DNA of 64,000 bases, taken from Antedon mediterranea. Lineage: Eukaryota > Animalia > Echinodermata. The notes below the pieces were generated by a model. That model was not told the origin of the DNA. It was given only the letters and a program-made list of their open reading frames with translations, and searched no databases. The stretch lies in assembly GCF_964355755.1 (NCBI RefSeq), contig NC_092671.1, positions 27,664,070 through 27,728,069 of the forward strand, given 5' to 3'. Position numbers and translations under genes: made by a program. Numbering within the stretch: position 1 is the first letter of the stretch; each line of letters begins with the position of its first letter. Positions 4,573 through 4,614 of this stretch are shown piece after piece.

Positions 4573-4614
<42 letters not shown>
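4573..4614 (+). other. 42-bp duplicate of 28S 3175-3216 (H68 3' strand/H69; R2 target upstream half) in the IGS, unit 1
   Basis: AGCGCGGGTAAACGGCGGGAGTAACTATGACTCTCTTAAGGT is identical to 28S 3175-3216; the flanks are unrelated to 28S. Confidence 0.95.

Follow-up and report, generated by a model that had tools for sequence, protein, structure and literature searches.

The rDNA spacers of the window, by which is meant the whole 64-kb stretch of DNA that was analysed, each contain an exact copy of the part of the 28S gene that is targeted by the retrotransposon R2, and other organisms also have copies of this 28S region in their spacers. That such copies recur is firmly established and, it appears, has not been described before. 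The copies are putative R2-binding decoys kept by selection, a reading that is given about an even chance of being correct from comparison of the sequences, and decoy function is presented here as a well-posed hypothesis and not as a result. Animal rDNA has harboured R2 over hundreds of millions of years, and the limits set on it by the host are usually ascribed to silencing and turnover of rDNA units. In the following, "in part" after a citation marks a source that was available in part.

The R2 target copy in the window

Six tandem eukaryotic rDNA units were identified in the window using Rfam, and the start of the 18S appears to be of an echinoderm type. The preliminary description had reported an exact 42-bp copy of 28S positions 3175-3216 in each spacer, about 240 bp downstream of 28S, and both points were borne out. 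The 42-mer occurred 12 times without mismatch, in the six 28S genes and in the six spacers, with no occurrence in 100 shuffles, and the spacer copy started 241 bp past the 28S end in all six units. Positions within the target are numbered from the R2 nick in 28S, such that the copy extends from -41 to +1 with the nick between 3215 and 3216. The features were located as follows.

649..4332, plus strand: 28S rRNA gene of unit 1 (Rfam)
3175..3216, plus strand: 28S source segment, uninserted, with the R2 bottom-strand nick between 3215 and 3216; the 3' junction of the R2 in metagenome locus L054 maps to 3216
14003, 26852, 37405, 47949 and 58493: starts of the other 28S source 42-mers (exact match)
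4450..4521, plus strand: 9-bp repeat in the spacer head, eight copies
4573..4614, plus strand: spacer copy of unit 1, -41..+1 (exact match)
4580-4592 and 4608-4614, plus strand: RUM-equivalent and RASIN-equivalent of the unit 1 copy, at native spacing (pattern search)
15401..15442, plus strand: spacer copy of unit 2 (exact match)
28250..28291, plus strand: spacer copy of unit 3 (exact match)
38803..38844, plus strand: spacer copy of unit 4 (exact match)
49347..49388, plus strand: spacer copy of unit 5 (exact match)
59891..59932, plus strand: spacer copy of unit 6 (exact match)
4615..4629, plus strand: 15-nt junction 3' of the copy, with a weak likeness to 28S +2..+25 (shuffle P 0.044)
4630..4657, plus strand: run of 28 T (A28 on the minus strand), the wrong strand for an R2 poly(A) tail

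The match of the spacer copy to 28S extended by 0 bases on either side, and the copy was the sole significant rRNA-gene fragment (E 2e-18; next best E 0.024) in the spacers of units 1 and 2, which were those searched. The 28-T run begins 16 bases behind the copy, and the junction at 4615..4629 is possibly the decayed downstream half of the target or a repair scar. The copy had further been described as unchanged in the six spacers; it is indeed identical in all of them, but this is uninformative on selection because the whole spacer head is invariant, with 0 differences over its first 355 bp among the six units. All six 28S genes are 3684 bp long and are therefore uninserted, as previously stated, and no R2 was found in the six 28S genes of the window, all six sites being empty.

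RNA folding of the spacer head left of the copy was no better than that of shuffled sequences (z -0.04), and the one minus-strand frame of the spacer head that was examined was closed by stops. An inverted match of 14 nt to the 3' end of 28S was put down to chance. Between 4860 and 8500 the window contains spacer subrepeats of ~300-380 bp, consisting of a 190-bp core and a GGCTA/GGCCC microsatellite. Near 8485-8497 the final core leads into a TATA-G-rich motif, which we take to resemble a Pol I start, and the cores are therefore probably duplicates of the spacer promoter. The spacer of unit 2 alone carries a 2.3-kb AT-rich insertion (17879-20175; GC 0.31) with CAC...GTG ends, imperfect terminal inverted repeats, no ORF longer than 73 aa and a 4-bp (or 5-bp) target duplication inside a GGCCC repeat. 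From its family traits this insertion presumably resembles a non-autonomous DNA transposon of the Chapaev or Transib type.

R2 recognition motifs

For R2Bm, the 13-bp upstream motif RUM at -34..-22 and the cut motif RASIN, TTnAnnT at -6..+1, suffice when held at a fixed distance, mutation of +6..+37 leaves nicking and TPRT at wild-type level, and replacement of T+1 by A abolishes cutting (PMC10499050, in part); the upstream motif and TTNANNT named in the preliminary description agree with this account. The footprint of the upstream R2Bm subunit covers -40..-20 and that of the downstream one reaches +20 (PMC6895275, in part), so that the left end of the window copy at -41 matches the upstream footprint, and its right end lies at the nick. 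R2 tolerates a change of linker sequence but not of linker length (PMC12203849, in part), and the A-clade R2Tg reads other bases of the same 28S stretch (PMC12222951, in part). R2 has been reported from echinoderms (PMC5035012, in part).

As had been proposed, the copy holds both R2Bm motifs: -34..-22 is identical to 28S, and TTnAnnT is present at -6..+1, at its native distance from RUM and with T+1 kept. With both motifs in register, the copy is therefore predicted to be a complete first-strand substrate for an R2Bm-like protein. A search of one unit with a relaxed RUM plus RASIN pattern gave matches only in 28S (3185) and in the copy (4583). The match to 28S stops at +1 instead of continuing to about +20, followed only by the weak likeness (P 0.044), and the missing downstream 28S may impair second-strand steps at the window copy. 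The departure from 28S at +2 also breaks the I-PpoI site, as stated in the preliminary description; this 15-bp site requires intact sequence on both sides of the cut. The same 28S site is shared, again as noted earlier, by Pokey, which uses TTAA at -6..-3, and the sites of R4 and R1 lie 28 bp and 75 bp further on (PMC3849761, in part).

Public sequencing runs

Parts of 4020-4690 were present in 20 of the 24 runs listed. Four runs of organism A, which may be the source sample, contained 85-89% of 61 words sampled from this region. An independent organism A run, X8, gave contigs over 4323-4437 with 2 differences in 115, and its depth table placed further contigs over ~4529-4569, one of them reaching 4569. 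X8 is RNA by guess only, and its cover of the spacer head was therefore not taken as transcription. In the runs X5 (organism B), X9 and X11 (organism C), short contigs next to the copy showed only 32-39-nt pieces of the 9-bp repeat, and gaps in these runs are uninformative.

Copies in the spacers of other organisms

The preliminary description had proposed that spacers of other organisms be searched for this 28S segment and the endpoints compared. Metagenome loci were fetched with an 18-mer from the 28S 3' end, which gave at least 104 loci (of ~170 stretches; 45 of 64 parts). Removal of 7 non-rDNA matches left 97 true 28S ends, of which 31 with less than 500 nt downstream were dropped; the remaining 66 loci, with at least 500 nt behind 28S, formed 54 clusters, and each spacer was read over at most 2.2 kb. 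The search returned copies of the R2 region in 17 of the 54 spacer clusters, each with 1-9 segments matching window 28S 3160-3295 in both orientations, compared with 0-3 loci for shuffled spacers. The matched region represents 136 of 1568 28S positions conserved at 90% or more. In an ungapped scan the target 60-mer scored above the shuffle maximum in 14 of 54 spacers. Among 18 control 60-mers of equal conservation, 13 matched none of the 54, four matched only the inverted 28S end of L074, and one, an 18S segment, matched 2 loci. The spacer of L074 contains at +1281..+2121 an inverted duplicate of the last 800 bp of 28S, which is either a palindromic array end or a mis-assembly.

Among the 37 copies, from 16 loci, to which an orientation was assigned, 22 were antisense and 15 were sense, as expected because the site is one of double-stranded DNA. 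The extents fell into two groups, one running from about -48..-36 to -1, +1 or +19 (L004, L030, L040, L042, L046, L054, L070, L074) and the other covering about -21..+30 (L016, L019, L027, L038, L075). One copy in L004 spans -41..+1, the same extent as the window copy, and those in L040 and L070 run from about -41 to +19. The copies are amplified as spacer subrepeats in L070, L054 and L019, with up to nine per unit in L070. When grouped by kinship at a tail identity of 97, 90 or 85%, the 17 positive clusters amount to 13, 7 or 4 groups, and diverged copies were present in separate metagenome assemblies (L010 and L012). No copy was found in 37 of the 54 spacers within the 2.2 kb, at most, read of each. 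Near-identical kin were split between copy and none within 2.0-2.2 kb read (L026/L027, L036/L076, L015/L019), and in the pairs L040/L070, L004/L030, L042/L054 and L016/L038 the copies were nearly the sole alignable spacer sequence.

Locus L019 carries TTAGGC repeats and L054, in its spacer, TTAGGG repeats, and the 18S of L035 is nematode-like. If these are read as taxon signatures of the hosts, as we assume, L019 and L035 on one side and L054 on the other likely represent at least two groups besides that of the window. Locus L054 combines four copies with an R2 that is joined to 28S exactly at +1. The 3' 1.66 kb of this R2 (L054 3360-5018), in a host whose spacer carries the TTAGGG repeats, includes a 467-aa open frame, for which a search of PDB sequences gave R2Bm as the best match (8gh6, E 1.8e-54) and a comparison with Pfam gave 0 matches.

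Several loci showed further features. At 539-842 of L042, all three spacer copies are interrupted precisely at the nick by a 2-nt A insertion that abolishes T+1 and is possibly the scar of an abortive R2 event. Three weak antisense copies in L078 (-38..+16/19, E 0.4-0.8 each), one of them above the ungapped null, suggest that some spacers scored as negative hold older copies. One or two diverged copies of 18S ~1091-1143 (window 10022-10074) were seen in L018, L028, L035 and L037, in both orientations; 18S is the target of R8 (PMC4838377, in part). Two copies of the 28S segment +500..+548 from the R2 nick (window 3716-3763), which may mark the target of another element, were seen in L007, L045 and L072, from three separate assemblies.

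A clade-specific 21-mer gave 0 metagenome loci. The 18-mer gave 0 matches to viral contigs and 8 to genome contigs, four of which were true 28S ends, with a target copy in none. A spacer primer of Meloidogyne may, we presume, be located within a copy of this kind. The literature searched, outside which most subscription papers and supplements lay, contained no description of R2 targets copied into rDNA spacers or of a decoy, and none was found in the available parts of PMC2048585, PMC10319768, PMC13580325 and PMC4838377.

Decay of the diverged copies

When one copy per locus was considered (n=8), changes were fewer in RUM (9/101) than in the linker at -18..-7 (27/93), giving a permutation p of 1e-4. 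When uniform decay was simulated and subjected to an identical detection step, the mean difference was 0.005, and the observed contrast had P<=0.001. Distinct changes numbered 10 at the 13 RUM sites, compared with 27 at the 12 linker sites. A per-locus sign test of the contrast gave 7:1 (p 0.07) and, with kin collapsed, 5:1 (p 0.22), which is not significant, and omission of the three most variable linker sites gave p 0.066. The motif-versus-linker contrast rests on one clade. None of 9 loci had an indel at -41..-19, compared with 3 of 11 for the linker and 4 of 10 for -6..+5. A recovery of identity at -7..-3 was weak (Wilcoxon 0.043; 4:2 after collapsing kin), of 25 RUM-anchored copies only 5 had the full cut motif in register, and the consensus base A-22 of R2Bm was changed in 30%.

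Two other sources of constraint were considered. Selection on helix 69 is unlikely because the 3' half of this helix, as we place it, is the part that decays, and snoRNA-type guiding is unlikely because the copies occur in both orientations. The identity of the window copy to 28S is 100%, which would also be expected of a neutral capture of recent date, and the chance of no change in it is 0.49 at 1.7% divergence; its identity therefore does not testify to selection on it.

Discussion

The decoy function suggested in the preliminary description gains support of a comparative kind from the recurrent copies in other spacers and from a conservation that appears biased towards the motif. In its favour stand the copy, with its place in each of the units, the two R2Bm motifs in their native spacing and the recurrence elsewhere, as well as the biased decay in one clade and the co-occurrence with R2 in one host (L054). 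As a decoy the 42-bp element would compete for R2 protein and divert nicks and insertions into dispensable spacer. It would have been captured from 28S during repair of an R2-made break, an origin suggested by its right end at the nick, would have spread through the array by concerted evolution, and would be retained by selection for the added R2 binding sites, whose number per unit it doubles here and such copies multiply elsewhere, with up to nine copies. By the rules of R2Bm the window copy is predicted to be bound, nicked and primed, and nicks could then also fall in the spacer. Elsewhere the cut motif has been lost from most copies, which are predicted to be binding sinks only.

A less likely, though substantial, alternative is that the R2 site is a break hot spot from which fragments ending there were pasted into the spacer during repair and were fixed as scars by concerted evolution without function, the window copy being simply a recent one. 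The right end at the nick and the perfect identity fit such a history, as do the patchy presence among close kin, the kin-collapsed conservation tests, which are not significant, and the duplicated upstream 28S that R2 junctions often carry (PMC3774820, in part). The clustering of indels at -6..+5 and the 2-nt insertion at the nick in L042 may be cleavage scars of the same kind. Neutral scars do not, however, predict that RUM is spared while the linker decays, nor an agreement of the extents with the protein footprint to the left and right of the nick. The amplification of copies as subrepeats is likewise not predicted, nor is their persistence in spacers that have otherwise become unalignable. 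Use of the site by the host is improbable, both as a harmless place for R2 breaks that drives rDNA recovery and as a putative binding site for a host factor, with a Myb-type terminator or a fork-barrier protein as equally improbable candidates. In Drosophila the expansion of rDNA copy number is initiated by breaks that the R2 endonuclease makes, and spacer breaks are used in yeast (PMC10266012, in part). The window copy keeps the cut motif and sits where terminators usually lie, before the T run. Copy and T run together presumably fit the layout of a terminator. A break site is opposed by the 20 of 25 copies elsewhere that are without the full cut motif. No 6-mer of -41..-18 was broadly enriched outside the copies, the excesses coming from few loci; the conserved block is ~24 bp, and the same sequence lies inside the transcribed 28S gene.

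The preliminary description had offered a relic of an R2 5' junction as the alternative, in which the 28S leader of a transcript was inserted in the spacer and the remaining element was lost. The copy is sense and ends at the nick, and R2 RNAs keep upstream 28S sequence and duplicate it directly, but their leaders measure 9-36 nt and the duplications mostly 13-28 nt, compared with 41 here (PMC3774820, in part). Behind the copy there was no Rfam ribozyme match and no R2 UTR or ORF. No P1 partner for a cleavage at -40 was found in 4615-5500, and the 7-nt matches for -29..-27 were at chance level, in spacer subrepeats 380 nt away. The homopolymer on this strand is T28 and not A, and many copies elsewhere are antisense or cross the nick, which together make such a relic very improbable. 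An assembly artefact, in which a chimeric 28S-spacer join was copied into all units, is the faintest of the alternatives. No reads or contigs across the copy itself were seen; against an artefact, both junctions are common to the six units, which are distinguished by SNPs and by spacer length, the four organism A runs (perhaps the source sample) contain most of the words sampled from the region, the independent X8 has contigs over the spacer head, one of which reaches 4569, and diverged copies recur in the separate assemblies of L010 and L012.

If the copies are decoys, a wider possibility arises, tentative and a little short of an even chance, that the rDNA of animals has repeatedly evolved target mimics, with spacers capturing and amplifying the footprints of site-specific parasites. 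It might with similar caution be extended to the R2 site, the R2-to-R4 stretch in nematode-like hosts, the 18S segment and the second 28S segment. Such mimics could, just as tentatively, form an immune layer at the DNA level that titrates retrotransposon proteins and a record of past or unknown rDNA parasites. A target mimic in each unit, if real, would be a different kind of host defence from silencing or turnover, and a portion of the spacer, which is regarded as junk, would thereby acquire a function. The diverged copies would provide a natural mutational scan of the bases that R2 proteins need, which bears on R2-based gene insertion, and the copies of 18S ~1091-1143 and 28S +500..+548 would predict the target sites of further elements.

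Comparison with known systems

The window copy resembles the 28S target of R2 in its sequence from -41 to +1, with both motifs, native spacing and T+1 (PMC10499050, in part), and differs from it in lying in the spacer, without 28S beyond +1, where disruption would leave the rRNA genes active. R2 activity also gives rise to short pieces of 28S that end at the R2 site or close to it in the 28S duplications at R2 5' junctions (PMC3774820, in part) and in the 28S-like 3' UTRs of fish R2 (PMC5035012, in part). Those pieces are parts of elements inside 28S, whereas the spacer copies stand alone in each unit with no element attached, are often antisense and are repeated. Pokey of Daphnia shares the TTAA of the same site and an exchange between rDNA parasite and spacer (PMC3849761, in part), but there the element carries spacer sequence while here the spacer carries the target. 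Pieces of rDNA are amplified as repeats, as here, in rDNA-derived satellites and in spacer subrepeats made of transposon remnants (PMC10319768, in part). Unlike these, the copies described here represent one specific 28S segment across lineages, and the region contacted by R2 appears to be spared in their decay. Among target mimics and traps for transposons, miRNA sponges and piRNA clusters are known. These offer a spare target that absorbs a sequence-specific agent, as is proposed for the spacer copy, which would differ from them in being a DNA mimic for the protein of a site-specific retrotransposon, present at least once per gene unit.
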